Assembly (NCBI GenBank): GCA_024679065.1
Contig: JAGIQG010000009.1
Location: 92,132,001 to 92,196,000, forward strand
Length of the DNA stretch: 64,000 bases
From: Sphyrna mokarran
Lineage: Eukaryota
Direction: 5' to 3'
Below are positions 5,980 through 45,200 of the stretch, piece after piece (the first letter of the stretch is position 1; each line of letters opens with the position of its first letter). Position numbers and translations under genes: made by a program. Below the pieces are notes generated by a model. The model saw only the letters and a program-made list of their open reading frames with translations. It made no database searches and had not been told where the DNA came from.

Positions 5980-6046
5980 ATGGCAGGTGAAGTGCAAGGA
6001 GTGTTTCTGTCGCTTGCGCTGTGTTTCTATCGGGTTCAAACAGTTG
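5980..6046 (+). CDS. MHC class I exon 1 (signal peptide) MAGEVQGVFLSLALCFYRVQTV/G
   Basis: ATG at 5980, hydrophobic core VFLSLALCF, consensus donor G|GTAAGT at 6047 (phase 1). Joins to GG TCT CAT to give the canonical mature N-terminus GSH. Lies in a CpG-rich stretch just downstream of X2/Y boxes. Confidence 0.85.
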
Positions 6047-21000: not shown

Positions 21001-24000
21001 GTTTCACTTCAGGTATGATTCAAATGACCCATTTATCAAACAAAGTTTATTTCGGAATATTGTTATCATGCACGGAAGGAAAATTAGCAATAGCTTTAAT
21101 CAATTACAAACAAAAACAAAACACCCACAATAATGTATAACCCTCAAAAAATAGGTCTAAGATGTTCCAATGAAAACCAATCCCATAAACGTCCCTTTAA
21201 ACAGATTCAACACAACAAAGACTAATGCTTATGTAATACTGGAATTGTGTCCTTTGGGTGAATTCTGCAGTTCTCTTGACAAACTCAGAATAGTTTGAAG
21301 TCAGAATAACTTCCCAAAACATCAGAGAGAGCAGGTAGTCAAGCCACCAATGTACAATCTTTCCTTCAGGAAGAAAAGATGCATTTCTTTCAGCCAGGGA
21401 GATGGAGAGCCTTTTTTCAGCTTTGTGCTGCTTCTGAAACTAAACACTGCTGTTCAAGACTTAAAAAAGAAAGAGCTACTGTTGCCTGACCTGCAAACAC
21501 ATTTTCCTCTAACAATGCAGGGTCAGAAAACTAATTCCATAGTAAAAATTAATAACCCCATTAAGCCACTTAAGGAGCAATAAAAGGATCTCTCCAGCCA
21601 ACTTGGCATTAATGACATCAGCTGAGAGCAACAGAGAATATGATTAAAAAAACTCTTAAAGGTACACTAACATCACAGACACAAAGCACAGGAATTTAGG
21701 CTAACAACAAGGAAAATCCTTAGCCCATCAGTATCCAGTGGTCCCAGAGGCCTTGGCCCAATTGGGCTTTTTGATTTTTTCAGTTACTTTAAAACTTTGC
21801 TCCTTTGAACCTGTGTTTGCTGGTCACATGGTGGCTATCAGCTTTGCGGTCCTCCTTGGAGACCCTTCAAGGAGATCCAGTTTGGGAACTCCTGCTCAAT
21901 GCTTTGTAATTGTGGGGCAATGCCATAGTAAGTTGACAGAAACTTCCCGTTGCTGAGTGATTAAGTTAAAAGTTGAGTAGATCGATTAGATGATTGAAGT
22001 AATTTATTCAAATCATCTTTATCTTGAAAACAAAAATCAACTTGGAAGTGGATAGAATTTGCTCATTTTGCCATCACCACATTGATGTAAATCGTGAGCA
22101 AAGACATTTTCCTGTTTAAAGTATTTGGGATTGGCCTATCATTTCAAACTCTTTCCCAACTTGTTCCATGAGCTGATGTTCTTAATGTTTGATTTGTCAA
22201 TGAGAATGTTCTCTCTTTTAAAATTTGTCCTAGGGTCTCATTCTCTGCTCTATCAGTACATCCTGAACCATGGGTTTTCGCATCTCCCACAGTGTAGTTT
22301 TATAGGGTTTTTGGATGGCTGCGAGACAGATTATTATGACAACACTCTCAGCATAGCCATTCCAAGGCAAAAATGGTTGGCAGAAGCATTTGACAAGAAT
22401 TTCTGGAAAGAGTTCACCGTAACTATAAAAAGTTTCCACGGAATCATCAAGGAACAGTTTGACACTTGGTTGCAGGAGAACAACCAAACAGCAAGTAAGT
22501 TAATCAATTTTAGGTCAATGGAGGGACTAATGGGCATTTTTATTAACTTTGGGGTTTAGTGAGTCACCCATTATACTACTGGCCTGAATTCCAGTGCGGT
22601 TGATATTCCCACATTCTCGTTTGCTTCTCACGGAATCGCAGAATGGTTATCGTACAGAAGATGGTCCTTTGACCTATCATCTCTGCAATGGATCTCCAAT
22701 TGAGTAACTCATCTCATACCAATGCCCCCGAAATACTTCTCTCCAGAACCCTGCACTTGCTTCCTTTTCAAGATAGTAGTTTCATTCCTCTTTGAATGCT
22801 TCAAGTGAATCCACCTTCACCATACTCTCAGACAGAACATTGCAACACCTAATAACTCACTCCGCAAAAGTATTTCTCCTTGCTTCTTTTATTAATTACA
22901 CTAAATCTGTGTCCTTTCTTTTTGTATCCTTCCATCAGTGAGAAGAGCTTCTCCCTATCTATTCTGTCCAGACCTCTTGTGATTTGGAATTTTCTCTCAA
23001 ACATTTTCCCAGAACAAACTGTTCAAACTTATCCAATTTATCTTCATAATTGAACCTCCTCATCCCTTGAAATATTTTTGTAATACTTTCTGCACCATCT
23101 CAAATGTACTCGAAGTTGGAAGCTGAGGCCAAACTGGTTACATCAGCAAATTTAGGGTAACATCCGATATAATATCCTCCCATCATTAAAACCCAAGGTA
23201 CCATCTGCTTTATTTACTGCTCCTGTGATGGATGGCACAGTGGCACAATAGTTAGTACTGCTGCCTTACAGTGCCAGGGACCCTACTTTGATTCCCAGCT
23301 TTAGTGATTTTCTGTGTATAGTTTTCATGTTCTCCCAGTGTGGGTTTCTTGTGGGTGCTCTGGCTTCCTCCCATGCTTCAAAGTTGTGTGGGTTAATCTT
23401 GATTGACTGTGTTCAATTGACTCTTGAGTGTCAGGGGTATTATCATAGTAAATCCATGGGGTAAAAGCAAAATACTATGGAACCTGAAACCAAAACAGAA
23501 AATGCTGCAAAATCTCAGCAGGTTTGACAGCAACTGTGGAGAGAGAATAGAGCCAATGTTTTGAGTCTGAATGACCCTTCATCAGAACTATTGTCTTTTT
23601 TCAGAACAGTTCTGAGAAAAGGCCATCTAGACATGAAAAGTTGACTCTATTCTCTTTCTACAGAAGCTATCAGAATTACGAAGATTTTTCAGACTTTTCT
23701 AAATACATGGTGTTATGGGGATAGCAGCTGGGTTGTTGTCAGTGTAGCTTCAATGGGCTGAATGGCCTCTGCACTGCACTCCATCTGCACTGTAGGGTAT
23801 ACCATGAATTTAAGAAACCTGCCACTTTCATTACTAAACACCCAGGTCATTCTGATTTTAGTTTACATTGATTTAGTAATGTAATAAGTAAACTTACATT
23901 AACACTGCAATGAAGATACTGTGTAAGTTCCCAAGTTGTCATGCTCTGGCACCTGCCCAGGCATACTGAGGGAGAATTCACCATGGCCACTTCATTTAAC

Positions 24001-27000
24001 CAGGATGACTTTCAGATTGGAGGAGGAAAGTGAAGCACCAGCAGGAAACCCACACAGACATGGGCAGACTCTATATACCAAGCTGGAATTTGAACCCACC
24101 CCCTGGCACTGTGGGCAGCATTGCTAACATAGTACCACTGTGCACTTCTGCACTCCCATTGGAGTGAATCCTTTATCTTACAATGTTTCTCCGTAGTTTT
24201 CCTCTGAAGATGGATCACTTCACACTTATCCCCATTTGTGCTCATCTTTATTTGAATCCTATTCTAGGTAAACTGGACCTGGGGACGGTGTTGTCTTGCG
24301 TAAGACTTTGTGTACCTATTACAGCTTTAGTAACCATCGAAAGACAATGCACATTGAGTGGAAGAGAAATTCTCACATTTGGTGTGAATAAATGCAATAA
24401 ATATTTAAGCATCCATCGACTGAATTGCCGTTTCAGGTATCCATTATATACAAGGACTGTTTGGCTGTGAGGTGAATGGTAGCAAAGCGAGTGGCGGGAT
24501 TTTGAAGCTTGCTTTCGATGGGAGATATGCTTTCAGCTTTGATATAAACACCTTGGTTTGGACTGTGCACGATCCAGTTGCTAAGGAATTAAAAGTGAAG
24601 TGGGATAAAGAGGAAACCATGAACCGTTACTTCAAGAGCCTAATAATAAATGATTGTGTGGCGTTGTGGCAGTTATACTATGCTGTGGGAAACACATTTC
24701 TCAGCAGAAAAGGTAAGTTGAGAACAGCACCATGGTCAGTTACAAGCTGGCTTTTGGAATACAATAGTTGAGGCAATGATTACAAAAACTCATTTGTAAT
24801 GAATGAAGTCATGTTTGAGCTATATAGAACTTTGGTGAGGATGCCACAAGAGTACTGTGTTAGTTCTGGACAGTACATTACAGGAAGGATGTGCTTGCAC
24901 TGGAGGGCATGCAGACGAGATTCACAAGGATGCTGCCTGGGATGGAACATTTAGGTTGTGAAGAGAGGCTGGATAGGCTTGGGTTGTTTTGGGTTATTGG
25001 AGCAGAGAAACTGAGCTGTGACCTGATTGAGGTGTACAAGATTATGAGTGGCTAAGGAGCAGCTATTCTCCTTAGCTGAACAGTAATTCATGAGAGGACA
25101 CAACTTCAAGATGAGGGATAGAAGATTTAATGGGAAGGTGAGGCCAGGGGGTTGTGAGAGTCTGGAATGTACTGCCTGGGAGATTGGGAAAGGTGAGTTT
25201 CTGTACATCCTTTAGAAAATATCTGGATGAGCACATGACATGGTGCAACATTCAAGGCTATGGACCAAGTTATGGTAAATGGGACTAGATGGGAGGTCAG
25301 GTGCTTCACATGAATCAATGCACATTTGATGGGCTGATGTGGCCTCTTCTGCACCCTGTGATTCTATGATTCAATTTCATTGGATCCGTTGGAGACATTC
25401 TCTGTGTTCTTTTAACAGATGGCTGATTCGATGTTGCCTATTTCACATTGGAAGCAAAAAGCTAAGCTTCCCGCTTGATTTCCTAGTGCAATGTTCGGTT
25501 TGCACGTTACTTGAAATTAATTCTCAGTCTCTCATCCAGTTATTCCGCAGGTTTCAGTCACTGCCAGGGAAGGGCCTGGTTGGTTCCTACAATGCGCTGT
25601 GCGTGGATTTCACCCGCAGTCCATTAATGTGACTTGGCTGAAGAATGGATCACAAGTCCCTGAGACCAAATCTACCGGCTTGCTGCCCAATGAAGATGGA
25701 ACCTACCAACTGACTACAACTCTCCAGTTTGACCCGTACGATGGGAAGCAGTATGGCTGTCACATTGAACACATCAGCTTGCCGGATGGGAAGACTGTTC
25801 TTTGGGGTGAGGACATATTTCCTGACATTGTAGTCCAGCATGTGCGGACCCAACCGTTTTCTTTTCGATAAATCACATTATTTCTTTGTCATACAAGCTT
25901 TATCATCAAATAGACAAATCAGGGAGCTGTCCAGTCCCCCAAAATTTTATTGCTTAACGATTTGATGGGGGGGTGGTGGAAGAAACATCGAGTTAGGTAT
26001 GTTCGAGAGCTGAGTTCCTTCTTGGGCAAGATAGTTCTGCAGATTTCATAGGCAGCATAGACTTCACCCTTCATAGTGAGGCCCATGGTTAGCCTGTGGA
26101 ACACTGCACACACCACATGTATTGGTATCCTACTGTCTGCCTCGGACATCTTTTGGTTCTTGGGAACATTATTCTCCACTGTCTGCAATTGGCTGTGAAA
26201 GTAGCTGAAAGGCCCTGCACTCCAAGCCACAATGCTTTGAATCATACTATAGCATTGACCGTCTCATAAGATCATAAGATACAGGAACAGAATTAGGCTG
26301 TTCGGCACATCCCATCTGCTCTGCCTTTCAATCCATGGCTAATAGAGTATTCAATCCCATTCTCTTGCCTTTTGCCTGTAACTTTCATCCTCTCACCATT
26401 TATCTCCATCCCAAATACACTCATTGACAAGTTGCTCATTTTGCTGCATTTTACACACTTCCAGCTTTGTTTCCACCTGTCTGCTTATCAGCTAACTTCA
26501 AAACTGCTGAGAGCTGTCAAGACTTCAAAGTTTCTGCCCAAATTTGTGAACATTTGTTAATACAGATTCATAGAATAGAATCATAGAATTCTATATTGCA
26601 GGAAGTGGCTATTTGATCCAATGAGCCTGCACTGGAAACAATCCCACCCAATCCTTATCCCTGTAACCCCAATATTTACCACGTTAAACCCACTGGCAGT
26701 AAGGGGCAACCCTGGCACTGTGAAGCAGCAGTACCAACCATTGTGTCACTGTGCCGCCGATTGGCAGTGAGCAGGTCACACCTAATGTTATATCATAGCA
26801 CATGGGGATGTTTAGCATGATGTTGAGTGTAAGTTCAGTATTGAACAAAAACAAAGACTGAGCACCCTCCTACATATATTCTTCCCTCTCTTTGTCTTCC
26901 ATGATGTTACTGGGTAACTCATAGTGTGTATGGGGTGTCAGGAAGTGCTATTACCTTTGGTGGGGGAACATGTTGCGTCCTTTCATGGATATTTGTCCAT

Positions 27001-30000: not shown

Positions 30001-33000
30001 ATTGTTCAGCATGATGATTACTGCTATGTTGAATGATGCCTTCCAGGACGTGTTGCTGGAATCAGTCTCAAGTACAGAGTGGATGGGAAGCCCATCACGT
30101 CCATGCTGGTCAACAAAGAACTCACTGCACTACACCCATTTTCCAGCACTTGGCCCAACGCCATTATGGTAGCAAAAGTGAATTTCGAATAACTTGTTAA
30201 ATGTTAGTAGAGTTTCTGACCTAACTGCCCTTTAAGGCAATGAGTTCCTGATTGCCAGCTTTCTCTGTATTTCTCCTCAACTCCCCTCTTCTATTTCTTA
30301 CCTTAAATCCATTCTACTTCTTACCTTACCTCTTTGTTATTGACCCTTCTCCTAATGGAAAAGATACCTCCCTACCTGCCATATCTATGTCCATCATAAT
30401 GTTATATCTCTTTCTGGTTCACTCTGAATCTTCACTGTACTAAGGAAAACAGCACCAGCCTATTCAATCTTTCCTCACAGATCAGACCCTTCAGGCCAGA
30501 CAGCACCCTGGTGAATCTTCTCTGTACCCTCTCCAGTGCAATCACATCCTTCCTATAATGTATCACTTACTCATTCCTATTTTCTCTCTCTGACTTGCTT
30601 ACTCTTTTGCCAGTCGTTTCTTTTCCCTCCTTCCTCTCCTCACAAATCCCAGTTTTTATTCATTGCTCTCAAATTTGGGTCAACAGATGCAGTGGACAAA
30701 AATACTCAATCTCTTGAAGTATTGCACAACAAACCTCATATTACTTTACCATGTTACCACAGAAGTATCAAACTGTAATACAAAACTTTAGCATGCCGGG
30801 CACCTAACTTCATTAGATGCAAATTATTCGACCTCTGCCTTTACTTCATTATGTACAAAAATATCTAGACTCTGACTTACTTGTTAATTTTAAAATAACT
30901 AACTTCTGACCAACTTCATTCTTTACAAAGTATTCAAAGGGTATGAAAACTTAACAAAATATCCAAACTCATGACTTGGACTTAGAAATCCTACGTGAAG
31001 TGAGGCCAACGGATTGGATTCCCCTACTGATGGGCTTTGTTCTGATGTCCCTGAGTCCCAAACTTGGTGTCTTGCTGCTTGTTCAGCAGCGGTTGATCCC
31101 AGGTTGCTGTTGCCAATGTCTCTGAATTTCTTCTTCTCATATAGATGTTGCTGCCACAGACCATTCTTCCAGTAACATATTCACACTAATCAATCACTGT
31201 GTTGTTGGTCATAAGTGCTCAAGTGTTATGCCTCTATCACAGATTATGATTCTCTCAGGAATACAACACACAGGGGCCTATGTTCAATCACTGCCTGTTC
31301 CACACACAACAGCCACAGTCCAATCAATTCCTGTATTTATTCCATAGATGTACACCCTACTCTGCTACTTTCACAGTATTTAGCCTCATATAAAGTTAGC
31401 TCTTTTAACCAGTAGGTTTCACTGATGTTTTCAGTTTGCCTTTATGAATACCCATCAGGCTATATACTCTTCCTCCATGTCCTACCTTTTAAGTACAATA
31501 ATATATGATGAACAAAGTGGATACTATTGACATTAAACCCTCTAACATCATATAACATGAACAGTGTTAGAGGTGTAATATAGGATTGTCTATTTGCATA
31601 GAAAATCATATTTAATAAATTCTTCTTTCAATATATTTCAGAAAGAAAGATGAGGGAAGACAAACACATAGGATTGATTATCGCAGCAGTGGTGGTGATG
31701 CTGGCAGTAATACTGGTAGTCATTGTTCTTGTATATAAAAAATGGAAAAAGCAAAGAGGTAAGGCATGGACAATAATAACAAACAAATTTTGCAAATCAT
31801 CTTTTCTCAGCCAGAAGTGTAATTAAATTTTGAGCTAAAATATCAGTTATGGCGGGGTCAATTATCCCATGGCTTAAATTGCCTAAAAACTGCATTTTCT
31901 TTGAGGAATTAATTCCCAATGGAGGAAGTAATGATAAGCTTACATCTAATCTCAATACTGCCTCTGTTAGAGCACTGTGTGCACTGTTCAGCTTCCCATT
32001 GTAAGGTCTCATTCAGCATTAGGAAAGGTACAGGCCAGATTCATCAAGATGCTGCCTACCTAAGGTGTGCACTGTCTTGAGTAGTGGGTGTCCCAATAAT
32101 GAAGGCTATCCAGACTCTTTAAGCTATTAAGACAAGAATGATACAACTTGAGAGAACAATTCTGCCAATATTTACAGGAATAGTTCCAGCCATGAGAAAT
32201 TTCAGGTAGGAGGATAGTTTGGAGAGGATGGAAATGTTTTCCTTGGAGATGAGAAGGCAAAAAGCAAATATTCAAAACTATCAAATAATAGAATCACAGA
32301 AAGGATGTAGCACATAAGGGGGTCTTTCAATCCATCTGGTCTACAGTGACCCAAAAGACAGGTGTCCTTTCTAATCCCATCTTCATGCAGGAGGAGCGTG
32401 TTTAGAATAGAAAGGGCAAAACTGATTCCATTCCTATCAGGATCAAAACTTAATATAATTTAGAGTGATAGTGATAGAGTCATAGAGGTTTGCAGCACTG
32501 AAACAGGTCCCTCAGTCCAACTTGCCCATGCTGCCCTTTTTATTAACTCCTAAGCTAGTTCCAACTGCTCATGTTTGCCCATATCCCTCTGTACCCATCT
32601 TACCCATGTGACTGTCTGAACGCTTTTTAAAAGACAAAGTTTTACCCACTTCTACTAGTATCTCTGGCGGCTTGTTCCAGACACTTACCATTCTCTGTGA
32701 AAAAATTGCTGCTCTGGACCCTTTCATCTCACCTTAAAACTATGACCTCTCACCTTAAATCTATGACCTCTAGTTTTAGACTCCCTCCTTTTGGAAAAAG
32801 ATATTGACTATTTACTTGAAATATACCCCTCATTATTTGATAGATCTCTGTAAGATCACTCCTAAGCCTCCTATGCTCCAGAGAAAAAATGATCCAGTCA
32901 ATCCAACCTCTCCTTATAATTCAAACTATCAAGTCCCAGTAGCAACCTAGTAAATCTTTCCTGCACTCTTTCTAGTTAAATAATATCCTTTCCATAATAG

Positions 33001-36000
33001 GGTGACCAGAACTATATACAGTATTCCAAGTATGGCCTTACCAATATCTTGTACAATTTCAACAAGACATCCCAACTCGTGTATTTAATGTTCTGACCAG
33101 TGAAACCAAGCATGCTGAATGCCTTTTTTACCACTCTGTCCATCTGTGACTCCACTTTCAAGGAGCTGTGAACCTGTACCCTTAGACCTCTTTGTTCTGT
33201 TACCCTCTCCAATGCCCTACTATTAACAGAATAAGTCCTACCCTGCTTTCAATGTACCAAAATCCATCATCTTGCATTTATCTAAATTAAATTCCATCTG
33301 CATTTGTCAGCCCCTGGCCTGATTGATCAAGATCCCATTGCAATCCCAGATAACATCCTTCACTGTTCACTATGCCACCAATCTTAGTGTCATCTGCAAA
33401 CTTACTAGCCACTTGTACTAAATTGTCATCCAAATCATTAATATAAATGACAAATAACAGTGAACCCAACACTAAGGCTGTAGGCCTTCAGTTTGAAAAA
33501 CAACCCCCTACAATCACTCTCTATCTTCTATCATCAAGTCAATTTTGTATCTATTTAGCTACCTCACTCTGGACCCTGTGATATTTAACTTTATGCAACA
33601 ACCCACCAGTTGGTACTTATAAAAGGCCTTGCTAAAGTCCATGTAGACAACATCAAATGCACTGCCCTCTTGGTTACCCCTTCAAAAAACTCAATCAAAT
33701 TTGTGAGAAATGATTTTCCACTCACAAAACCATGCTGACTGTTCCTAATCAGTCTCTGCATCTCTAAATACCTGTAGATTCTATCTTTCAAAATACCTTT
33801 TGACAACTTACTCACAACAGATGTGAGGCTCACCGGCCTGTAATACTCAAGCTTTTCCCTCAAACAAAGGCACAGTATTTTCCATCTTCCAATCTTCAGG
33901 CACCTCACCTGTGACTATTGATGATTCAATTATCTCTGCTGGGGGAGGTACAATTTCGTCCCTAGCCTCTCACTGTATCCTGGGATACATTCGTCGGGCA
34001 TTGGGGATTTATTGATCTTGATATGTTTTAAGACTTCCAGTACCTCCTTCTCTGTCATATGTATACGCCTCAAGACATCACTATTTATTTCCCGAAGTTC
34101 TCTAAGATCCATGCTTTTCTCAACACTGAATACTGGTGAGAAATATTCATTTAGGATCTCACCCATCTCTTGTGGGTTTGCAGAAGAAGCAAGTATAACA
34201 TCAGAAAAGAAACTTTATCACACAGAAAGGTTGGGGTCTGGAATACACTGCCTGGAAATGCAGTGGAGCCAGGTTCATTTGTAACATTCAAGATGGCATT
34301 AGATGATTACCTGAGGTCCAAAGATCAGGAGAATGGAACTAAGTCATGATGCTCATTTGGAGAGCCTTTGCAGACACGATGGACTGAATGATCTCCTTCT
34401 ACACCGTAAAAGTTCAGTGATTTAGGGTTAGATTGGTCAAGATGATGAGGGAAAAGGGAGTGAAGGGAATTTTGGATCAGGGCAGGTCAATTAGGAATAT
34501 TTGTTCACCTGATGAAGACATGGCTGTGCAATCTGAATGGGCTGAAGAACTTGTATCCTATGTTTTAAGCGGGTGTTTTGAAATCTTTGTGGCTTGTTTA
34601 TAGTGACTCTGGATTAGAATTTTCTTTCAATGGATTTTGGATGTGGAGTATGTCATGGTGAATAACACAACATACTCACTGAGGGATCTGTTGTTCTAGT
34701 TTATCAGCCGACCCAGACAGAAGCAGGAAAATCTGTAAAAGAGGCTGTTGGGGAGTGGCATGGGGGAATTTCAGTATTTAATGATAGTGTAAGATGAATG
34801 ATATTTTTTCACTGGCTGTCTTTAGTACATCTCAGCCAGCTACCTTTTTGTGACTATTAGGGCAGGTATGTACAGGGGAACCAACAGAGGGGGCGAGATG
34901 AGCTGGGGTGGGGGTGTTGGGGGAGCATGTAAAGAGCAAAGAACAAAGTGCAGTACAGCACAGGAAAAGGACCTTTGGGCCTCCAAGCCTGCACCAATTA
35001 TATCCCATCTAGACCAACCGCTTATATTTCTCTATTCCTGTCTGTTTATGTGTGTATCCAGATAAATTTTAAATATCACTAACATATCTGCCTCAATCAC
35101 CTCAATTGCTAATGCATTTCAGGTCCCCACCACTCTCTATGTAAAAAAATGTCCCCTCACACATCTCCACTGAACCTTTCCCCCCTTATCTTTAACTTGT
35201 ACTCCTTTGTAATTGTTATTTCTGCCCTGGGAAAAAGCTTCCAACTGTTCATCCGATCCATTCTCCTCATAATTTTGTAAAATTCTATCAGGCCGCCCCT
35301 CAGCCTCCGTCTTTCCAGGGAGAACAATCCCAGTTCATTCAATCTCTCCTCGTTATGAATACACTTCGTACCAGGCGCCATTCTGGTAAAACATTTTCTG
35401 TATTCTCTCCAAAGCCTCCATGTCCTTCTGTAATGTGATGACCAGAATTGGACACAATATTCCAAAAGTGGCCTAACAATGTTTTATATAACTGTAACAT
35501 AATTCGCTAACTTTTGTATTCAATGCTCTGTCCAATGAAGACAAGCGTGCCACATGCTTTCTTCACCACCTTTTCCACCCATGCTGCCACTTTTAAGGAT
35601 TTGTGGACATGTATTCCCAGATCCCTCTGTGAGGCTGGGGCAAAGCACAAATTGTGGTGCGTGTGCGTGTGTGCGGTGGGCAGAGGGATGGGGGAGGTGT
35701 GGGAAGGCTGGAGAGAAAGATATTATGTTAGAGGGTGTCTTTGATACACACAAGGCACTTCTGAATGATGTGCTTCCCTTCCTTAGCGACCTATCAATAA
35801 TTATTTGAACTAACAACTTCCTTAATTTCACTAGCCTATCTAGGCAATAGGCTGTGTTGCCTTTTGATTTGTTAACAAGATAATTGCTGGTGGACTTATT
35901 TTCAAATATCGGTGGCTGGACTGTTGATTTTGGCATCTGCCTGCCTTTGCAGAAACATTGGCACATACTTACTTGATGGTGGTGTGGCCTAATGGATAAG

Positions 36001-39000
36001 GGGCCGGACTTCGGTAATCAGGTGATTCCATCAAAAAATTGTAGGTTTGAGTGCTGCTGTGATTGTTTAGGGGAAGAGGGCAGTGTACCATTAATATCAC
36101 GAGAATAATATTCCAGAGGTGCAGGGTAATGTTCTGGGGACATAGATTCAATTTGCATCATTCCCAATGCTGGGGATGAGGCACAGTCTCATGAAAGAGA
36201 AAAATTGCACTTTTCTGGGGATAGGATCAGTAATGGACCTGAAAACAGTTAGGTAATTATCTGGCATGTGCATCTCTTGAAAGCCATCCCTAGTAAGCAC
36301 ATCTGAAACAGGTTATTCCTCACAGTTTAGAGATTTGTGTTCCCACAGAGAAGGCCCAGTTCATCTGGTTCAGGCTGTGTACATAGACTTTCCGAAGAAT
36401 TTTTGGAGGGGACTGGTGAGGGGTGATACACCATTGAGAAGCAATGAAGCCCATTGAAAACAAGAGGCATTGTCAGCATGGGTACAGAGTTAGCTGAGCA
36501 GCAAGCATCAGAGAGTATTGGTGCAGGCCTGTGTTACTCAGACTGGAGGAATAGGTTTCTGTATTGCGAGGTGCAAGGTAGAGTGAGTGGCCGATGAAAA
36601 TCCCTAGGCATCTGACTCTTGCTCACTTCAATGCAGCATACACCTTGAAATGGGAAAAAAAAGTGTCTGTCCAACTCTGTTTCCATTAACACAAGATTTA
36701 TTGAAGAAAGAAAGGTGACCAAGCTCATCTTTAAACTTATGCAGTTGTGTCTGAGTGCAAGAGCATTCTCTATTGAAATCTATTGGTGGGATAGCAGCCA
36801 AATGGGTGGGCGCTTCCAAAACTAGGGGCCATAGCTTGAGGTTAAGGGATAAATCTTTTAGAACTGAAGTGAAAAGATATTTCTTCATCCAGAGGGCAGT
36901 GACTATGTGGAATTCACTACCACAGAATGTAGGTGAGATCAAAACATTTTCAAGAAGAAGTTAGATATAGTTCTAGGACTGAAACGAATCACAAGATATG
37001 GAGGGGTGGGGGGGGAGCGGTTGGGGGAGAGGGAAATCAGGATATATCCCTAGAGGTAGGTCCTTATGACAGAATTTGTGAATGCCATAAAGCTCAGACA
37101 TATTGTGAAGTGCAGTAGTCATTAGGATAGATTTTTAAAAGGATGTGAAGAAGCCTCTCAAATGGACAAACAAGAGGCAAATGAATTGTAATGCAGTGAA
37201 GTAGAAATTAAATATAATTTTGTCAGAAGAAAGAGGAATGCAATATAAAATAAGTGATAAAATGTTAAAAGGAGTCCTGGAATTGAAAAATTTTGGAGTA
37301 CATGAAGTTTACTTATTAGTCACAAGTTAAGCTGACATTAACACTCTGAAATTCCCCTTGTCACTACAATCCGGCATCTGTTTGGGTCAATGAACCTAAC
37401 CAGCACGTCTTTCAGAGTGTGGGAAGACATAGCGAAAATGTGCAAACTCCACATCGACAGTGACCCAAACTGGGAATTGAACTTGGATCCCTGGCACTGT
37501 GAAGCAGCAGTGCTAGCCACTGTGCCAGCCAAACATGTGCCTCACATGTGCACAAAATATTGAATGTGACATGGCAGATTGAAAATAAACAGAGTTGTGC
37601 AGAGTGGCAGCACAGTGGCGTCATCATTGGGTATTAGACTTATGGCAATGCTCCAAGGGCCTAGATCTAAATCCCACTATATGGTGAAGTATAAATTTAA
37701 TCGAAACCTAATGGTGACCATGATGCTATCAATCATAATGCAAATCTGTTTGATTCACCAATGGCGTTTAGGGAAATAAATATTTACCTGGTCTGATCCA
37801 CAGATCCACAATGTGGTAGAATTTTAACTGCCCTTTTAAATTGCTACATAATTCAAGAGCAATTAGTCGTAGGCAACATATCCCAAGAAAAAAATAAGTT
37901 ATGATTGAACATTGTGGGACGTAGGATGGCACAGTGGTGAACACTGCTGCCTCACAGTGCCAGGGACTCAGGTTCACTTCACAGCTCAGGTCACTGTCTG
38001 TATGGAGTTTGTTTGTTTCCCCATGTCTGTATGGGTTTCCTCCAGGTGCTCCAGTTTCCTCCCACAGTCCAAAAATGTGTGGGGTTAGGTTGATTGGCTA
38101 TGCTAAAAATTAGCCCTAGCGTCAGTGGGATTAGCGAGGGTAAAAGAATGTGGTTCTGGGAATAGGGCCTGTTTGGATTGTGGTCGGCGAAGGCTCGATG
38201 GGCCGAATAGCCTCCTCCTGCCTGAGATTCTATGATTTTTATATACAAAACCTTGTTCACTTGCAACTGGAGTACTTTAACCAGTTCTAAGCACCGCACT
38301 TTAGAATGGATGTCACAAATTAAGCGGTATTTGCAAGCATGGTTCCGAAATTGAGGCACTGCCATTATGTTGATAGCTTGGAGAAACTTTCTTATTCTGA
38401 ATGAAGATTTGTGAGGTGGTTTTGTGGAAACGTTCAAACACATGCCATATCCAGGCAGTTAGATCAGGAGAAACTGTTCCCATTATGAATGGTTGAAAGC
38501 CAGAAGACACCAATGTAAGGTTAAATAAATGTATGGCAACACAAAGAAACATTTTCAATCATTTTTAAGGCTGGAATGCACTAGTGGAAAGTGTGGTGGA
38601 GGTAGATTTTATGGCACCCCTAGGAGAGGGAACAATGCAGTGCAGGGCCACTGAATTAGGTTAGATATGGCATTTGAATCTCTGGACTTTGTGGTAATTT
38701 GCAGTGATTAAGTCAGCAATGGACATGTTCGACCATATGCCATCATGTGGCAGGTTTGCACTAGTATCAGATTTGGATGCCATGACTATTCACTTTTGAG
38801 CTGAACTTTAAAAAAAACATTTTCAAGTGAGGTAAAGTGAGTGGCTGATGAAAATCCTTTGGCATCTGACTCATGCTCACTTCAATGTAGCATGCACCTT
38901 GAAATGGGAAAAAAAAGTGTCTGTCCAACTCTGTTTCCATTAACACAAGATTTATTGAGGAAAGAAAGGTGACCAGGCTCATCTTTAAACTTATGCAGTT

Positions 39001-39866
39001 GTGTCTGAGCCCAACCACATTCTCTATTGAAATCTATTGGCGGGATAGCAGCCAAATGGGTGGGCGCTTCCAGAACTAGGGGCCATAGCTTGAGGTTAAG
39101 GGATAAACCCTTTTTAGAACTGAAGTGAGAAGACATTTCTTCACCCAGAAGGTGGTGAATATGTGAAATTCACTACCACAGAATATAGTGAGATCAAAAC
39201 ATTGTCTGATTTCAAGAAGTTAGATATAGTTCTAGGATCGAAACGAATCATGAGATGTGGAAGGGTTGACGGGGTCAAGGGTTGGGGAGAGGGAGATCAG
39301 GATATTGAATTTGATGATCCACTATGATCAAGACTAATGGCCAAGTAGGCTTGAAGGACCAAATGGCATAGTCCTACTTCTAGTTCCTATGTTTTTATTT
39401 GCAAATTGCACTTTGCATGGAGACACAAGTGTTCCAAATGATGATTGACATTGAGTTTGATGGCACGGATAATGGAATTGGGAAGAGCATGGTTTCTGGT
39501 AGTGGTGGGAAGAATTATGATCAACATTGCTGAGTACCAGCTTGTTCACAAGTATGCTTCCACCTCAGGGTGTTAGCTGACAGAGTCTTCACAGGCATTA
39601 TGATCATCTACGTTTCAGTTATCCCCATTTGGTACGATCTTAGACATATCCTCACAGAAGAATGTGCTAAACTGATCATGCTTGATTGAATTGACTAAAA
39701 GATTGGGAAGTAACCATTTTGGTAATCACAGTTGACTAAAAAGCTAGTTCACTGAATCATCATAAAATGGAAATAGACATGACTGTATTCATTACACTGC
39801 TCCGTGCAATCACCCTTATATTGTCTAACACTTATTTTTCATTTTCTAGAGTACCATGGTGTCTAA
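5980..39866 (+). CDS. Non-classical MHC class I heavy chain, 6 coding exons: join(5980..6046,22234..22494,24437..24712,25540..25806,31642..31758,39850..39866), 334 aa
   Basis: All five introns are GT-AG and phase 1, as in MHC class I genes. Exon lengths 67+261+276+267+117+17 = 1005 nt give an uninterrupted frame: leader, alpha1 (GSHSL..NQT), alpha2 (C101-C164 pair), alpha3 (C1-set Ig), TM and short tail. The lineage cannot be assigned without a search. The last exon is the least certain. Confidence 0.9.
7590..7905 (+). mobile_element. HE1-like V-SINE
   Basis: tRNA-like head (agtgattagcaatgctgcct…gggttcagttc), V core and CR1-like tail. Confidence 0.75.
7905..8435 (-). mobile_element. CR1 3' fragment
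   Basis: Minus ORF HSLRIQDRPFRMDIRRNFLTQR..LCNSLP. Confidence 0.75.
9730..11370. mobile_element. Cluster of degraded CR1 3' fragments (mixed orientation)
   Basis: [19 protein letters not shown]-type remnants on both strands. Confidence 0.7.
12352..12543 (+). pseudogene. C-terminal fragment of CR1 ORF1p (SGNH esterase-like)
   Basis: NETLQLNAWMRDWCRAEGFIFIDHWEVFRREGHLFTRDREQLTGRGTHILAGRLAGVFQKCLN* aligns with the ORF1 at 43172-43714 ([20 protein letters not shown]…[15 protein letters not shown]). Confidence 0.85.
12531..15437 (+). CDS. CR1 ORF2p: APE endonuclease + reverse transcriptase (968 aa)
   Basis: Uninterrupted ORF. APE motifs NARS, VTETW, GDFN, SDH. RT motifs [25 protein letters not shown]. 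Confidence 0.95.
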   Translation: MFKLIGREGGETAGTGSGIERDDRVTPEGRKEYPRAEGLQCMCFNARSVTGKTDELKAIMFTRSLDVVAVTETWLKEGQDWQLNIPGYKCFRCDRVGVKRGGGVALLVKDNIIAVQRERGMDDLGIESLWVELRNRKGVVTLLGVYYRPPNSPQAAEEGICRDILDKCRKNRVVVVGDFNFPGVDWSVPRAVGVDGEEFVQCVLEGSLEQYVDGPTREGAILDLVLGNEPGQVVDVEVGEQVSNSDHNSVCFRILMEKDETGPKGRVFNWGRARYGQIRQDLKDTDWDKLFEGRSTRYMWESFKGKLNSLQERYVPARRKDGKGRIREPWLTREIEDLIKKKREAYIRSRQLGTEIALEAYRDCRRDLKRGIRKAKRGHEVALAGRIKENPKAFYTYVRSKRMVRGKIGPLRDRGGDLCLEPEGMGEILNEYFASVFTQETGQMSVPDVDKVEDWLREIRITRKEVLGLLGSLKTYKAPGPDGIYPRLLRELREDLAGPLTQIFVSSLDTGEVPEDWRIANVVPFFKKGQRDHPGNYRPVSLTSVIGKLMERILRDRMYEHLERCDLIRDTQHGFVKGKSCLTNLVEFFEEVTKTVDEGQAVDVVYMDFSKAFDKVPHGRLIEKVKAHGIQGRVCRWVENWLGRRRQRVVVEGSFSDWKPVTSGVPQGSVLGPLLFVVYINDLEVGVGGEISKFADDTKMLGLAGTEEQCQAIQQDIDRLVDWADRWQMEFNPEKCEVMHFGRKNVEENYRIKGKTIRSIETQRDLGVQVHKSLKVSSQVEKVTKKAYSMLAFIEKGIEYKSRSLMLQLYTTLVRPHLEYCAQFWSPYYRKDVESLERVQRRFTRMLPGMEGLSYEERLDRLGLFSLERRRLRGDLIEVYKIIRGIDRVNGGKLFPPLEMDRTRGHGHRVRGAMYRTNIRGQFFTQRVVGVWNALPSKVVGAGTLGLFKGLLDSHMSGMQIEGYIRTV
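16617..17641 (+). mobile_element. Penelope-like element remnant (GIY-YIG end) with inverted pseudo-LTRs, TSD AGGTAT
   Basis: Arms 16659-16934 and 17365-17641 are reverse complements. The interior encodes a degenerate GIY-YIG C-terminus (…YIG.T.QTL…RRVAEQRLIAKFHT…LNRDLGF). AGGTAT at 16611-16616 and 17642-17647 splits a minus-strand SINE. Confidence 0.85.
17557..17592 (+). ncRNA. Minimal hammerhead-ribozyme-like motif in Penelope pLTR
   Basis: TCAC-CTGACGA-A-GAGG(GAAA)CCTC-GAAA-ACTT-GTGA: core boxes CUGANGA and GAAA, stem II hairpin, stem I TCAC/GTGA. Confidence 0.55.
18760..19360 (+). mobile_element. CR1 3' fragment
   Basis: ERVQRKFTR…LFSLE..RL.G.LTEVYKIM and a CR1 tail. Confidence 0.75.
22234..22494 (+). 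CDS. MHC class I exon 2 (alpha1 domain)
   Basis: Acceptor tttgtcctag|GG, donor A|GTAAGT. Translation GSHSLLYQYILNHGFSHLPQCSFIGFLDGCETDYYDNTLSIAIPRQKWLAEAFDKNFWKEFTVTIKSFHGIIKEQFDTWLQENNQTA contains the class I hallmarks GSHSL, G26/D29, PR..W51, W60 and the N86 sequon. Confidence 0.95.
23232..23800 (+). mobile_element. HE1-like V-SINE split by a palindromic insertion (23463-23700)
   Basis: tRNA head ggcacagtggcacaatagttagtactgctgcc and V core; the SINE resumes at 23701. Confidence 0.7.
23463..23700. mobile_element. Short palindromic non-autonomous element (probably Penelope-derived) with 13-bp TSD
   Basis: The two halves are imperfect reverse complements. Flanks aaatccatggggt (23450-23462) and aaatacatggtgt (23701-23713). 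Related half-copies occur near 6400-6510, 16240-16310 and 55860-55985. Confidence 0.6.
24437..24712 (+). CDS. MHC class I exon 3 (alpha2 domain)
   Basis: Acceptor gtttcag|GT, donor G|GTAAGT. Translation SIHYIQGLFGCEVNGSKASGGILKLAFDGRYAFSFDINTLVWTVHDPVAKELKVKWDKEETMNRYFKSLIINDCVALWQLYYAVGNTFLSRK shows H93, Q96, GC101, DG, W133, KW147, C164 and Y171. Confidence 0.95.
24800..25370 (+). mobile_element. Degraded CR1 3' fragment in MHC intron 3
   Basis: ORF2-end remnants and tail gatgggctga…cctcttctgcaccctgtgattctatgatt. Confidence 0.7.
25540..25806 (+). CDS. MHC class I exon 4 (alpha3, C1-set Ig domain)
   Basis: Acceptor ctcatccag|TT, donor G|GTGAGG. Translation VIPQVSVTAREGPGWFLQCAVRGFHPQSINVTWLKNGSQVPETKSTGLLPNEDGTYQLTTTLQFDPYDGKQYGCHIEHISLPDGKTVLW contains C..GFHP..I.VTW, LPNEDGTYQ and Y.C.IEH.SL motifs. 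Confidence 0.95.
27600..30090 (+). mobile_element. RTE-clade LINE (BovB-like), degenerate APE + RT
   Basis: Motifs RPERRTALVARE.ARYNID..VLSETRL, ISVYAPT, LGDFNAR, HWHLID, CGADC..D.RL, HDWFDEND, FVDL.KAFDTV, KQ.CVLAPTLF. Multiple stops and frameshifts. Confidence 0.88.
29563..29736 (-). mobile_element. Short CR1 3' end inserted into the RTE element, TSD GTATCA
   Basis: (tagaaca)n tail in reverse. GTATCA at 29557-29562 and 29737-29742; removing the insert restores RTE RQCQEKYQEQNHELYTTFVDL. Confidence 0.85.
31642..31758 (+). CDS. MHC class I exon 5 (connecting peptide/transmembrane)
   Basis: Acceptor atatttcag|AA, donor G|GTAAGG. Translation ERKMREDKHIGLIIAAVVVMLAVILVVIVLVYKKWKKQR has a 22-residue hydrophobic helix followed by a basic stop-transfer cluster. 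Confidence 0.92.
32470..34175 (-). mobile_element. Degraded CR1 LINE (RT region to 3' end)
   Basis: Minus ORFs [42 protein letters not shown]. Confidence 0.85.
34940..35630 (-). mobile_element. CR1 3' fragment
   Basis: Minus ORF EYCVQFWS…[13 protein letters not shown]. Confidence 0.8.
36576..39305 (+). repeat. Local direct duplication of about 470 bp (36576-37045 and 38830-39305)
   Basis: Both copies read aggta.agtgagtgg..gatgaaaatcc…gaaatgggaaaaaaaagtgtctgtccaactctgtttccattaacacaag…ggga.atcaggatat. Confidence 0.9.
37925..38235 (+). mobile_element. Full-length HE1-like V-SINE
   Basis: Head ggcacagtggt..acactgctgcctcacagtgccagggac..aggttc, V core, tail gctcgatgggccgaatagcctcct…gattctatgatt. 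Confidence 0.85.
39850..39866 (+). CDS. MHC class I terminal coding exon (cytoplasmic tail EYHGV*)
   Basis: Strong acceptor: branch point CTAAC (39825-39829), long pyrimidine tract, TTCTAG|. In phase 1 it reads (G)AG TAC CAT GGT GTC TAA. It is followed by non-repetitive AT-rich 3' UTR-like DNA with ATTAAA at 40126-40131. Confidence 0.7.
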
Positions 39867-40125
39867 GCAATACCTGTGAGAGGTTAAACAGCAGAGTTGA
39901 ATTGGAACCAAGGACATATTGAAAGTAATCTGAAAATCAATCACTTTATGACAAAGTCGAGGCCACTTGTATAAATACTTGACACACACTTTATGCTTGC
40001 ATCATTTTATTAACATTTATTCCTTTCCTCAGTATTGAAGGAAACATTGCTGATTCAAATCAGAATTGCATAAACTGCTGCTACATGTTACATGAGCACA
40101 ATGCAGAATTAATTCATTTCTGGCA

Positions 40126-40131
40126 ATTAAA
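40126..40131 (+). terminator. Candidate poly(A) signal (ATTAAA) of the MHC class I gene
   Basis: ATTAAA 260 nt after the stop, followed by a GT-rich tract (tgtgttttgtg). Confidence 0.4.
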
Positions 40132-40619
40132 ATGTGTTTTGTGAATATTGATGCATTCCTAATTAGCAGAAGCTTGAACATTGATCTGATCTAACATTGA
40201 TCTTGCGTGCTGGAACATTGAAGATGGGAATTCTATTAAATCACTGGGTGTACAGCAGGGATATCCTTTCCGCAGACTCAGTTCACCAGCTGCGTCCACA
40301 ATACCCAAAAACCTATTCAGTCCGATAACTGCAATGCCAATGTTACTCTTCTGCTGCCAACTCTATGATTACAATAGGAATTAGTAAAATAGGCATAGCT
40401 TAACTTCTGGCCAATGTGCAAAATGTGTAGGAGAAACCTGGCAAGTGAGCAAAGGCATCTCCAGAAAGTCAAGTAGAATAGTTAAAATGTTGTAAGCTGC
40501 AAATGGATTCAGGGAATACTTGAAGTGAAAATGATAAATATCAGAGTGGGGCATAACTGCAAACTTTCAGTCTATTGATTCCACGATTCCATAATGTTGA
40601 CCGAGTTGCAAATGTACGT

Positions 40620-41296
40620 TGTGCAAGTGTAAGATTTGCAACCCAATCAACATTATCTACCTGATACCCTGCAGGAAATAATGTCCCAAGACATGGTACA
40701 TTGGGGAGACCATGCAGACGCCATGACAATGGGTGAATGAACACCACTTGACAATCACCAGGCAAGAGTGTTCTCTTCCTGTTAGGGAACACTTCAGGGT
40801 GTCACAGACATTCAGTCTCTGAACTTTGGGTAAGCATTCTCCAAGGTGGCCTTCACAACACACGACAGCACAGAGTCGCTGAGCAGAGACTGATAGCCAA
40901 GTTTTGCACATGAGGACAGCCTTAACCAAGATCTTGGGCTCACATCACACTATCTGTAATCCTCATGACTTGCCTGGACTTGCAAAATCTCACTAACCAT
41001 TCTGTCTGGAGACAATATACATCTTTTTAACCTGTGCTTAACATTCTCTCCACTCACATTGTCTATACCTTTGAGACTTGATTACCTGTAAAGATTCATA
41101 TTCCAACCATTATTTTGTAATTTGACTTTGTGTCTTTATATGCCCTGCTTATGAATAGAACTTCCACTCAGCTGATGAAAGAACAGCTCCAATCGCTAGT
41201 GATTTTACTAGTGAATAAATCTGTTGGACTTTAACCTGGTGTTGTGAGACTTCTTACTGTGTTTACCCTAGTTCAACATCAGCATCTCCACGTCAT
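40620..41296 (+). mobile_element. Penelope-like element remnant (GIY-YIG end + pLTR) between the two genes
   Basis: Same family as 16617-17641 (tacattggggagaccatgcagac…gctgagcagagactgatagccaag…gttgtgagacttcttactgtgtttac). Degenerate CTGATGA motif at 41172. Confidence 0.8.
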
Positions 41297-41318: not shown

Positions 41319-42223
41319 TTACACACTGTGTTTAACATCTTTTTTTTTAATAATTAGAGTTACTGGATATTTAAACAGGTTCTTTAATACCTCTCTGAAT
41401 TTAGTCTGGGACACTGCATAAATAATGGTATTTGAGCAGGAACTTAAATGCTGCAGCATATATCCTGTTTGCTCCATAATGGTGAAAGGATTACTATAGT
41501 CTGTGTGTAAGTATTGAATTTCCATAATCTGTACACAGATATAATGAACAAAAGTTACCGACCATAATAGTATAAAGCTGCCAGATATGGCCAACAGTAA
41601 AACAATGGATTTTTTTCGGTTTTCCATTTCCGGGTCGTTATCACTGTTCCGCAGACTTCTTCTAACCTTGCTTGTGAGCACAATGTGCCTGATGGTCAAG
41701 CCATTGAGTATCAGAATCAAGAGGAAGGGAATAAAAGGCATTAGAACAATGTCAACCCACAAGAATGTAACCCATATAGGTTCTGTATAGAGGCTTAACT
41801 TTACATTGCAGAACCATAATACATTGTTGATTATTATGTGAGGTTCAAATGTAAAATAAATTGGGATGTTTTCCAGAATACTCAGCCCACATATTATCGC
41901 TACAACCACTCCCGCAGTTTTTTCAGTGCAATATTGTGTTCTTAATTTTTGCCAACAAATGGCAACAAATCGGTCAAAGGTGAAAGCTACGGTTAGCCAG
42001 ACGGAACATTCAATAGAAGCAAAAATTAAGAAGAAATTCAGGCTGCAGACAGGAGTGATGTCCAGGAAGGAATCTGGAAAATAGATTTCATTCATCTCGT
42101 ATAGGATCACGTCAACAATCAGGACAAGTAGATCTGTCGCTGCCATGGAAACCAAGTAAACAGTGATGCATTTGGAGAGGCCACATTTCCCCCGGGAAAG
42201 GATCACAATGGTTAAAAGGTTAG
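41319..42223 (-). CDS. GPR139/142-like GPCR exon 2 (TM1 end to TM7 and C-tail)
   Basis: Lies within ORF 41319..42326. The true start is the acceptor (minus strand ...gcaatttcag|CT AAC CTT) at 42223. The ORF-track N-terminus MHEEKVQ… is intronic. Confidence 0.92.
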
Positions 42224-45200
42224 CTGAAATTGCAGAAGCAGTGAAATAAATCAGGAAAGAAGATTTGAAAAAAGAAATTGCACATGATAAACTGCAATAA
42301 TTAGTCTGGACTTTCTCTTCATGCAAAACATTTACTTTCTGCCTAGTTAAAAGGAGAAATTCTGAAGGTACCTGACTATTTAGCCATTCACAAAATATTT
42401 AGTGCTGGAATCACCATGGAAAATGTCTAATAAGGTGTTCTGATATTGAAATTTCCAGCTCTCATTTACTATCTTTTCCATTCAGACAACTTTAGGCAAA
42501 TCAATGAATTCACATTTTATTGGAGTATCTTCATAAAATTAATAACTTGTTTACAAATCTCAAGCTCTATTTGTTAATATTTCAGAAATAACACTTCTAG
42601 AGCCAGAAACCTTTTCAGCACAAGGAGATATTTTAGTCCATCAAGTTCATGTTATTCCCTGAAGTACAATCCAGTCAATCCCCAAAGGCTTGAAGGATCA
42701 GTTCTAAGCTGAGTCTGTCTAAATTTCCTTCAAAGGAAAAGTGCCCATTCTATATATTAGTCTTATAAAACTTCTCTGAACTGATTTTGTTTACACTTTT
42801 TCTTAAAGAAGGTGACCAATTTTGTACATAATACTCCAAATGTTGTCTCACAAGGAACTGGAAATGCAGCTTGAGGACCTTCATCTCATTAGAGAGAATG
42901 AGGACTTAATTGTTAGGAGCTATCGGCAAGTGGTCACAACAGGGCAACGGGAAGAAGGCACGTGGGTAACTATTAGGAAGGGGAAACCTCAGGTGATGGA
43001 GAGCATGCTGGTGGATGTCCCCCTTCATAATAAGTACTCCTGCCTGAGTACTACTGGGGGGAGACAGCTCATCCGAGGGAAGCAGCGGTGGCCAGCTCTC
43101 TAGAGCTGAGCCGTACGTCAAAAAACTAAGAAAAAGAGAGAAGCAAGGCAGTACTAATAGGGGACTCTATAGTGAGGGGTTCAGACAGGCGTTTTTGTGG
43201 ACGCAGACGAGAGTCGCGGATGGTGGTTTGTCTCCCTGGAGCTGGGATCCGAGATGTCTCTGGACACCTCCCTGACATCCTGAAAGGGGAGGGTGAGGAA
43301 CCTGAAGTTGTAGTTCATATAGGTACTGCAGACATAGGCAGGAAGAGGGAGGCAGTCATGAATAGGGATTATAGGAAACTGGGTAGGAAGCTGAGGAAGA
43401 GGAAAGTGAAGGTAGTTATCTCAGGATTGCTGCCTGCGCCTCAGGAAAATGACAGCAGGAATGGAATGAGATGGAGGGTGAATGCATGGCTGAGGGACTG
43501 GAGCAGGGGGCAGAGATTCCGGATCCTGGATCATTGGGACCTCTTTAGGGGCAGGTGTGACCTGTACAGTAAGGATGGGTGGCACTTGAATCCGAGGGGG
43601 ACTAATATCTTGGCGGGAATATTGGCTAGGGCTACTGGGGGGACTTTAAACGAGAAAGGTTGGGGGGAGGAAATATTGATGAGACTGAGAACAAGGAGGT
43701 TAGTTCCCAGGTAGGGAAGGACTGTAGACAGAATGAGGGAGGTTAGAGGGGTGGTAGAAAAGGGAAATATCCTGACTGAAGTGCTGAGGTGTGTCTATTT
43801 TAACACCAGGAGTGTAGTAAATAAGGTAGATGAGCTTCGGGCATGGATTGCTGCTTGGGAATGTGATGTGGTGGCCATTACAGGGACTTGGTTGTCTCAG
43901 GGACAGGACTGGGTACTTCAGGTGCCGGGATTCAGGTGCTTCAGGAGGGACAGGGTTGAGGGCAAAAGATGTGGTGGTGTGGCACTGTTGATCGGGGACA
44001 GTGTCATGGCTGCAGAGAAGGTGGATGACGTGGAGGGAATGTCTACGGAGTCTCTGTGGGTGGAAGTTAGGAACAGCAAAGGGTTGATAACTTTGCTGGG
44101 TATATTCTATAGGCCGCCCAGTAGTGACAGGGAAGTTGAGATGCAGATAAGGAAACGGATCCTAGAAAGATGTAGAAATAACAGAGTTGTCATGATGGGA
44201 GATTTCAATTTCCCAAACATCGACTGGAATATCCCAAAGGTAAGGGGTTTGGATGGGGAAGAGTTTGTTAGGTGTGTTCAGGAAGGTTTCCTGACACAGT
44301 ATGTGGACAAGCCTACAAGAGGAGAGGCTATACTTGATCTGGTGCTGGCTAATGAGCCGGGACAGGTGTTGGATCTCTCGGTAGGAGAGCATCTTGGAGA
44401 TTGAGATCATAATTCTATCTCCTTCATGATAGCAATGGAAAGAGATAGGATCAGGCAGGATAGGAAGGTGTTTGTCTGGATTAAGGGGAAATATGAAGAC
44501 ATCAGGCAGGTAATTGGATGAATAAACTGGAAGGAGGTGTTCTTGGAGAAAAGCACAGAAGGAAGGTGGTGGATATTCAAGGAATATTGGTCTGGAGCTC
44601 TGCACGACAACGTTCCGAGGAGACAAGGAGGTTTTGGTAGGACGCAGGAACCATGGTGCACGAAGGTTGTGGTGAACCTAGTCAGGAAGAAAAGAAAGGT
44701 GTATAAAAGGTTCAGAGAGCTAGGATATGTTAGGGATCTTGAGGAGTATAAGGCTTGTAGGAAAGAGCTTAAAAAGGAAATTAGGAGAGCCAGAAGGGGT
44801 CATGAGAAGGCCTTGGTGGGTAAGATTCAGGAGAATCCCAAGGCCTTCTACAAATATGTGAAAAGTAAAAGGATGAGAAGAGAAGGGATAGGACCTATAA
44901 AAGGTGAAGGGGGAAAAGTCTGTGTGAATCCGGAAGAAATGGCAGAGGTGCTTAACGAGTACTTTGCCTCGGTATTCACGGTGGAAAGTGAACTGGGAGA
45001 TTGCACTGCAGGTTTGAGGCATACGGAAAAGATTGAGTATGTGGATGTTAGGAAAGAGGATGTGTTAGACCTGTTAAATTCTATCAAGATAGACAAGTCG
45101 CCGGGACCGGATGGGATGTACCCCAGGTTATTGTGGGAGGTGAGGGAAGTGGTTGCAGAGCCCCTGGCAATGATCTTTGCGTCGTCCATGGAAACGGGAG

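Follow-up and report, generated by a model that had tools for sequence, protein, structure and literature searches.

A nonclassical class I gene of Sphyrna mokarran with a conserved, probably functional endocytosis signal in its tail

Does a class I major histocompatibility complex (MHC) gene in a shark carry a signal that directs its product to endosomes for lipid loading, as CD1 genes do? The question is raised by a 64,000-nucleotide stretch of the Sphyrna mokarran genome (assembly GCA_024679065.1, contig JAGIQG010000009.1, positions 92,132,001 to 92,196,000 of the forward strand; hereafter the window). The window contains one class I gene, and the chain predicted from it ends in the tyrosine-based motif YHGV. 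On sequence grounds, the gene is an intact orthologue of UGA, a nonclassical MHC class I chain of the elasmobranch MHC-Ib lineage, from a carcharhiniform shark. Its tail bears a conserved endocytosis signal that probably functions, the lineage is one already known as CD1-like, and the signal was most likely built from a tyrosine that is common to class I tails. Taken as a whole, the explanation that we consider likely is that of an intact UGA gene with an AP-2-type endocytic tail for endosomal lipid exchange, derived from the class I tail tyrosine.

The gene model, which was built from the genomic sequence, consists of six exons that encode a 334-residue chain without an internal stop, and all of its introns are GT-AG introns in phase 1. 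The spliced chain terminates in KKWKKQREYHGV before the stop codon and, in a longer view, in ...VYKKWKKQREYHGV. PDB entry 9CH4 is matched with 117 bits by the alpha-1 domain, 121 bits by alpha-2 and 136 bits by alpha-3, and the next single-domain PDB chains reach 40, 49 and 68 bits. This nurse shark entry, titled 'Crystal structure of shark nonclassical MHC CLASS I, UGA', was released on 2026-03-18, and its alpha-1 domain is labelled Gcirratum_UGA among the transcript-contig-named queries of one part of the PMC10751288 supplement. Homologue searches returned 18 elasmobranch proteins. In a midpoint-rooted tree of 40 rows, with neither CD1 nor UFA among them, the window protein is the sister of the Mustelus protein (100/99), and the UGA clade comprises 15 of the 40 rows on one side of a branch with the same support (100/99). 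The supported branches inside the UGA group follow the relationships of sharks and rays. UFA was the first identity to be considered and was rejected; the UFA alpha-1 sequence in that part of the supplement matches 8GM8, which scores 40 bits versus 117 for 9CH4. Other class I genes appear to be co-located with the UGA orthologues within Pristis and within Mustelus, suggesting linkage there. UGA is described as a single- or low-copy gene, and three distinct models with differing tails are found both in Pristis (P0008, P0009 and P0016) and in Pristiophorus (P0002, P0004 and P0014); the tail motif is present as annotated in one of these six.

How does YHGV come to stand at the end of the chain? 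The transmembrane exon closes with ...CAA AGA G/GTAAGG, a phase-1 donor, and the exon 6 acceptor reads ...CATTTTCTAG/AG TAC CAT GGT GTC TAA, so that the junction encodes E-Y-H-G-V-stop. A preliminary description of this locus had placed the motif behind a strong acceptor approximately 8 kb past the transmembrane exon, and the splice signals agree with it. Intron 5, between 31758 and 39850, spans 8091 nt. Ahead of the acceptor at 39850, positions -20 to -4 are 82% pyrimidine, 71 nt are free of AG and a CTAAC at 39825 resembles a branch site; among the five acceptors of the gene, this one has both the highest pyrimidine fraction and the longest AG-free zone. Of all 2329 AGs between the transmembrane donor and the window end, it is the only one that yields x-Y-x-x-Φ-stop, where Φ is hydrophobic; YxxΦ falls within the first seven residues from 49 of them and x-Y-x-x-Φ directly follows the junction from 13. 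Likewise, only 39850 produces the motif among 15 strong acceptors. Two other chain ends were rejected: an acceptor two bases downstream (tail VPWCLS...) matches no orthologue tail, and read-through of intron 5 (...KQRGKAWTIIT...) resembles none.

The same description had called exon 6 a micro-exon, and this label does not hold. Most likely, exon 6 is the terminal exon and only a short part of it is coding (17 coding bases plus the 3' untranslated region, UTR), because the stop lies inside the exon, the sole nearby donor-like site (CCT/GTGAGA at 39876) is weak and poly(A)-type hexamers lie downstream (Table 1). A 26-nt internal exon that uses the 39876 donor is conceivable.

A suggested check, conservation of the motif in orthologues, gave a positive result. 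YxxΦ occurs at the matching place in 9 of 17 database UGA models and in 9 of 13 genera, and, with the window included, in 10 of 17 scorable UGA tails. The variants in the database models are YNAV, YNTV, YNVV, YNVI, YQTI, YENI and YESI; the tyrosine and Φ are thus constant and the two middle residues vary. Five shark tails end in the motif (Mustelus EYNAV-stop, Scyliorhinus DYNTV-stop, Cetorhinus DYNVV-stop, Heterodontus AYNAV-stop and Stegostoma GYNVI-stop), and the window tail matches them end-for-end, with the same ending at the same place. Its tyrosine stands eight residues after the first basic residue, and valine occupies +3. The tails of four batoids run past the motif (Rhinoraja DYQTIQPNQNMRC, Pristis AYENIRANQNLRC, Hemitrygon DYESIRAHRRVNC and Mobula DYENIPAHRNVNC). 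The controls were 115 of 120 listed proteins (245 matches in all), which are in part related and hence non-independent and include neither CD1 nor UFA; within the first 20 tail residues, YxxΦ is found in none of the 19 scorable proteins from the other chondrichthyan class I set and in 1 of the 81 from the other vertebrate set. Before these counts, proteins in which no transmembrane segment or tail was detected were dropped (P0014, 5 of the 24 proteins in the other chondrichthyan set and 10 of the 91 in the other vertebrate set), as was P0007, a class I-G protein-coupled receptor (GPCR) fusion model of the Leucoraja locus. In a further homologue set, 141 of 147 new matches were left out of the analysis, as human proteins may be among them.

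The origin of the signal is suggested by other class I tails. A tyrosine lies 8-9 residues into the tail in all six UAA-type chondrichthyan chains, from shark, ray and chimaera, in the form of YNPA, YNPT, YKPA or YTPA followed by a Ser-rich stretch, and YxxA is found in 31 of 81 other vertebrate class I tails. Passages of PMC12518231 and PMC2532750 describe the exon-6 tyrosine of classical class I as conserved and its YXXA as an analogue of YxxΦ, required in dendritic cells for endolysosomal traffic. In MR1, a single T-to-V change at Y+3 raised internalisation and recycling, according to a section of PMC9499830; the step is therefore small, valine at +3 suffices and the change could recur. Thus, the UGA signal probably consists of the tyrosine ancestral to class I tails and a hydrophobic residue at +3. 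Since classical class I of sharks has a tyrosine at the same place, the signal is no proof of CD1 ancestry. The contrast drawn earlier between CD1 and classical tails holds in part: classical tails are longer and Ser-rich, but the tyrosine is not a CD1-type distinction, given that classical class I, the UAA-type chains of sharks included, has it at the same position.

The position of the stop codon appears to have a later origin. As modelled, sawshark P0004 lacks the motif, and in another frame its tail is compatible with D-Y-N-A-V-Q-P-N-Q. None of 5000 shuffles fit this nine-residue pattern, which was itself drawn from the orthologues, and 85 of 5000 fit a five-residue one. The first stop of the window tail falls where the re-read sawshark tail has Gln or a stop, and the batoid tails extend eight residues past Φ. 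A second TAA follows in the window as the eighth codon after the valine, the same codon at which the re-read sawshark tail can stop. These features suggest that a Gln-to-stop change shortened the UGA tail in galeomorph sharks.

The extracellular part of the chain was compared at 35 groove positions; eight anchors (Y7, Y59, R84, T143, K146, W147, Y159 and Y171) are those listed in part of PMC4364491, and the remaining positions follow HLA numbering. In the window protein, 22 of the 35 positions are apolar and four of the eight anchors are kept, with the changes Y59F, R84E, T143L and Y159L. Its mean hydropathy is 1.16, compared with 0.43-0.94 in 11 UGA orthologues and -0.79 to 0.13 in seven classical-type chains, which retain 8/8 anchors. 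Judged by these residues, the groove is hydrophobic, a CD1-family feature, as had been claimed, and the chain departs from the anchor pattern of classical class I (UAA). Identity between the window and Mustelus proteins is 71% in alpha-1, 74% in alpha-2 and 93% in alpha-3, and the end branch of the window protein is approximately threefold longer. The groove in Sphyrna mokarran may be evolving faster.

We propose the following mechanism. Exon 6 would append (E)YHGV-stop to a short basic tail, in which the tyrosine, eight residues into the cytosol, and the valine at +3 would bind the AP-2 mu subunit and bring the chain into endosomes. There, the apolar groove may exchange lipid before the chain recycles, in the manner of CD1b, c and d. 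The signal would have arisen from the tyrosine of class I tails, YNPA-like in shark UAA, once V or I had come to occupy +3 in the ancestral UGA of elasmobranchs; later, in galeomorph sharks, the Gln-to-stop change would have left the chain ending in the motif. AP-2-dependent endocytosis of UGA is likely on the evidence of the tail sequence; delivery to lysosomes by way of AP-3 would be a more speculative extension. By analogy, the UGA tail would work like a CD1 tail, and descent from CD1 is a separate question. The human CD1d motif, which is the closest match to YHGV, binds AP-3 poorly in comparison with that of CD1b. CD1d interacts with AP-2 and AP-3 (PMC6603179). In CD1b, c and d, adaptor proteins are bound by the YXXZ motifs, which drive the chains to recycle by way of intermediate and late endosomes (PMC5002277).

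What does the tail add to existing knowledge? A 2025 review states, on the basis of a personal communication, that UGA is CD1-like and lipid-binding (PMC12562908), and the CD1-like reading of UGA is therefore already known to the field; one passage of PMC10751288 likewise mentions UFA as CD1-like, as unpublished work. The preliminary description had proposed a CD1-like pathway in a cartilaginous fish. The CD1-like lineage and the conserved motif stand, but the pathway is not newly found here because UGA had already been named and crystallised. The solved nurse shark structure, from another species, represents only the ectodomain without the tail, and a tail signal that both sharks and rays conserve supplies the trafficking side of the likeness to CD1. 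A description of the UGA tail motif was not found in the literature searched on shark class I and CD1, and the primary UFA/UGA paper behind 9CH4, which that search did not cover, may well describe it; the available portions of PMC8010645 and PMC11481681 do not treat the UGA tail. Shark tails also reveal a simple route to such a signal, from a class I tail tyrosine through a hydrophobic +3 residue to truncation. Because of this route, the tail carries less weight as evidence for CD1 orthology, and the question of ancestry or convergence becomes sharper.

The window gene resembles mammalian CD1b, c and d in its six exons, the last of which encodes the tail and 3' UTR, in its short basic YXXZ tail and in its hydrophobic groove, as far as the CD1 account in PMC5002277 extends. 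YHGV has Y, G and V in common with the YQGV of human CD1d, according to a section of PMC5002281; however, CD1d ends with a modified dileucine, whereas the window tail has no residue after Φ. In sequence, CD1 is no closer to the window protein than MR1 or classical class I is, and the six-exon plan is also that of MR1 in the same account (PMC5002277) and thus not diagnostic for the CD1 family. Classical class I (exon 6, YXXA; Y320) similarly has its tyrosine encoded by the first exon of the tail, at a distance of 8-9 residues from the membrane in the UAA-type chains of sharks, and YN is common to YNPA and YNAV. Unlike UGA, it has a small +3 residue (A or T) and then a Ser-rich extension. For MR1 and for cod and stickleback class I, parts of PMC4364491 and PMC9499830 also report endosomal sorting signals, tyrosine-based or putative, whose origin is separate from CD1. 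MR1 differs from the window protein in its Thr at +3 and slow internalisation (PMC9499830, same section), and the stickleback motifs are located in the seventh exon of U-lineage genes (PMC4364491, same part).

Several observations weigh against the proposal of an AP-2-type endocytic tail. Trafficking routes are not predictable with certainty from motifs, as one passage of PMC4364491 cautions. The 31758-39850 junction is a prediction from genomic sequence, and a competing acceptor at 40033 would give a tail ending in ...KQRVLKETLLIQIRIA. The motif is absent in 8 of the 17 database UGA models (Heptranchias X2, Chiloscyllium X2, Leucoraja X5, three of Pristiophorus and two of Pristis). Some of these look like read-through or mis-joined ends of automated models, and it is also possible that they represent real tail-less isoforms or paralogues. 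In addition, YHGV departs from the YNxV/I of the other five motif-bearing sharks. The transmembrane segment and groove of the window protein are faster-evolving, with an end branch of 0.22 versus 0.077 for Mustelus in the 40-row tree, and its transmembrane segment aligns as approximately four residues longer than those of the orthologues.

Could UGA and CD1 descend from a single lipid-presenting class I gene of the jawed-vertebrate ancestor that already had a short YxxΦ terminal exon? UGA and CD1 have in common the six-exon plan and a short tail ending in YXXZ, and the batoid motifs YENI, YQTI and YESI resemble CD1 motifs (YQNI, YQDI, YEGI and YEDM) listed in a portion of PMC5002281, in which CD1 motifs outside mammals are described as variable. 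An origin of CD1 approximately 500 Myr ago has been suggested by workers on UFA and UGA (PMC12562908). Chicken CD1-1 and CD1-2 rank second and fourth in a structural re-alignment (Z 16.1 and 16.0; root-mean-square deviation ~8; ~200 residues aligned), but class II chains and ZAG lie within 1 Z of these values, so that the ranks are ties; the comparison used an AlphaFold model of the Mustelus orthologue that is poor in alpha-1 (mean predicted local distance difference test score 65) and cannot rank CD1 against other class I folds. No CD1 chain is found among the best 60 PDB matches of the orthologue P0001 or of the UGA profile; MR1 and classical chains are placed above CD1. With alpha-3 taken by itself, the scores of chicken CD1 (59-60 bits), chicken classical chains (61-64) and shark UAA (59) are tied. 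Furthermore, the motif is one substitution away from the common class I tail tyrosine, and orthology of CD1 and UFA is hard to assess, as stated in a passage of PMC10751288. Common descent of the two tails is therefore unlikely in our judgement. The related claim that the UGA YxxΦ terminal exon is homologous to that of CD1, so that UGA, perhaps with protein P0033 (see below) as a link outside elasmobranchs, would be the true orthologue of CD1, is doubtful. If the exon homology were true, tail-driven endosomal lipid loading would predate the split between sharks and bony vertebrates.

Alternatively, exon 6 may be used and its tyrosine merely retained from class I for slow turnover or phosphorylation, as in MR1 and classical chains, with ligand loaded in the endoplasmic reticulum. 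The tyrosine at tail position 8-9 in all six UAA-type tails of sharks, rays and chimaera is compatible with such retention. In parts of the cited work, the AP-2 signal of MR1 is an off switch and its ligand is captured before the surface is reached (PMC9499830), and classical Y320 is also a phosphorylation site (PMC12518231). However, a hydrophobic +3 residue is found in all 10 motif-bearing UGA tails, from sharks and rays, and is absent from the controls, and a canonical Φ speeds recycling in the MR1 section of PMC9499830. We consider mere retention improbable. It is very unlikely that the 31758-39850 junction is a prediction artefact or a minor isoform, with the main transcript formed by read-through or through 40033: the 621 AGs from the transmembrane donor to the GPCR stop include six further acceptors of fair strength and several orthologue models have other tails, but 39850 has the best acceptor features in the gene, its x-YxxΦ-stop outcome is unique and its tail matches those of five shark orthologues end-for-end.

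The looser strength filter that seven of these 621 AGs pass identifies 40033 as the best competitor of 39850. This acceptor, 183 nt downstream, is strong, with 82% pyrimidine, a 69-nt AG-free zone and a branch-like site, and the tail portion of the chain spliced to it would be VLKETLLIQIRIA. It could yield an alternative tail or a 3' UTR intron. The features of the gene and its surroundings are listed in Table 1.

Table 1. Positions of the UGA gene features and of other elements in the window.
Feature	Positions	Strand	Support or remark
Exon 1: ATG and leader peptide (MAGEVQGVFLSLALCFYRVQTV), donor GTAAGT	5980..6046	+	Mustelus UGA leader match, 78% over 27 aa
Exon 2: alpha-1 domain	22234..22494	+	AG/GT, phase 1; best PDB match 9CH4, E 4.4e-33
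Exon 3: alpha-2 domain	24437..24712	+	Pfam MHC_I; best PDB match 9CH4, E 2.1e-34
Exon 4: alpha-3 immunoglobulin C1 domain	25540..25806	+	Pfam C1-set; best PDB match 9CH4, E 5.1e-39
Exon 5: connecting piece, transmembrane helix, basic stop-transfer KKWKKQR; donor G/GTAAGG	31642..31758	+	orthologue alignment
Intron 5 3' end: AG-free zone, CTAAC branch-like site (39825), pyrimidine tract, TAG acceptor	39778..39849	+	
Exon 6 coding part: (E)YHGV-stop; YxxΦ motif at 39852-39863	39850..39866	+	orthologue tails
Predicted 3' UTR of exon 6	39867..41219	+	end uncertain; ATTAAA 40126, 40235; AATAAA 41214
Probable relic of an older, longer tail: six in-frame codons (AIPVRG) and second TAA	39867..39887	+	P0004 re-reading and batoid tails
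Two-exon rhodopsin-family GPCR gene	41319-42233 and ~54215-54300	-	converges on the class I gene
Degenerate piece like the alpha-3 exon end (DQYDGKPCSCHNEHS...), intron 1	20808-20897	+	tblastn E ~1e-3; no DNA-level match to the real exon
989-aa uninterrupted endonuclease/reverse-transcriptase frame of long interspersed nuclear element (LINE) type, intron 1	12468-15437	+	family judged by eye

P0033 is a class I protein that is sister to the UGA group (99/98), with 35-45% identity per domain and UGA-like helix motifs. Its groove is more apolar still (hydropathy 1.37, 2/8 anchors), and its modelled tail has no YxxΦ. P0033 is distinct from the alpha-1 sequences published for UFA and for chimaera 'UGA', and an Atlas search on it returned no specific family. 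If it comes from a bony vertebrate, it would extend the UGA lineage beyond elasmobranchs.

With poly(A)-type signals on the minus strand at 40006 and 40016, the 3' UTRs of the class I gene and the converging GPCR gene may overlap. The Leucoraja models P0006 and P0007 join UGA to a GPCR that resembles this one (57%), and the MHC chromosome of the sawfish bears a cluster of GPR139-like genes. The degenerate alpha-3-like piece in intron 1 is possibly a relic of an old duplication. In addition to the uninterrupted LINE-type frame in the same intron, many further decayed LINE-type copies fill the window.

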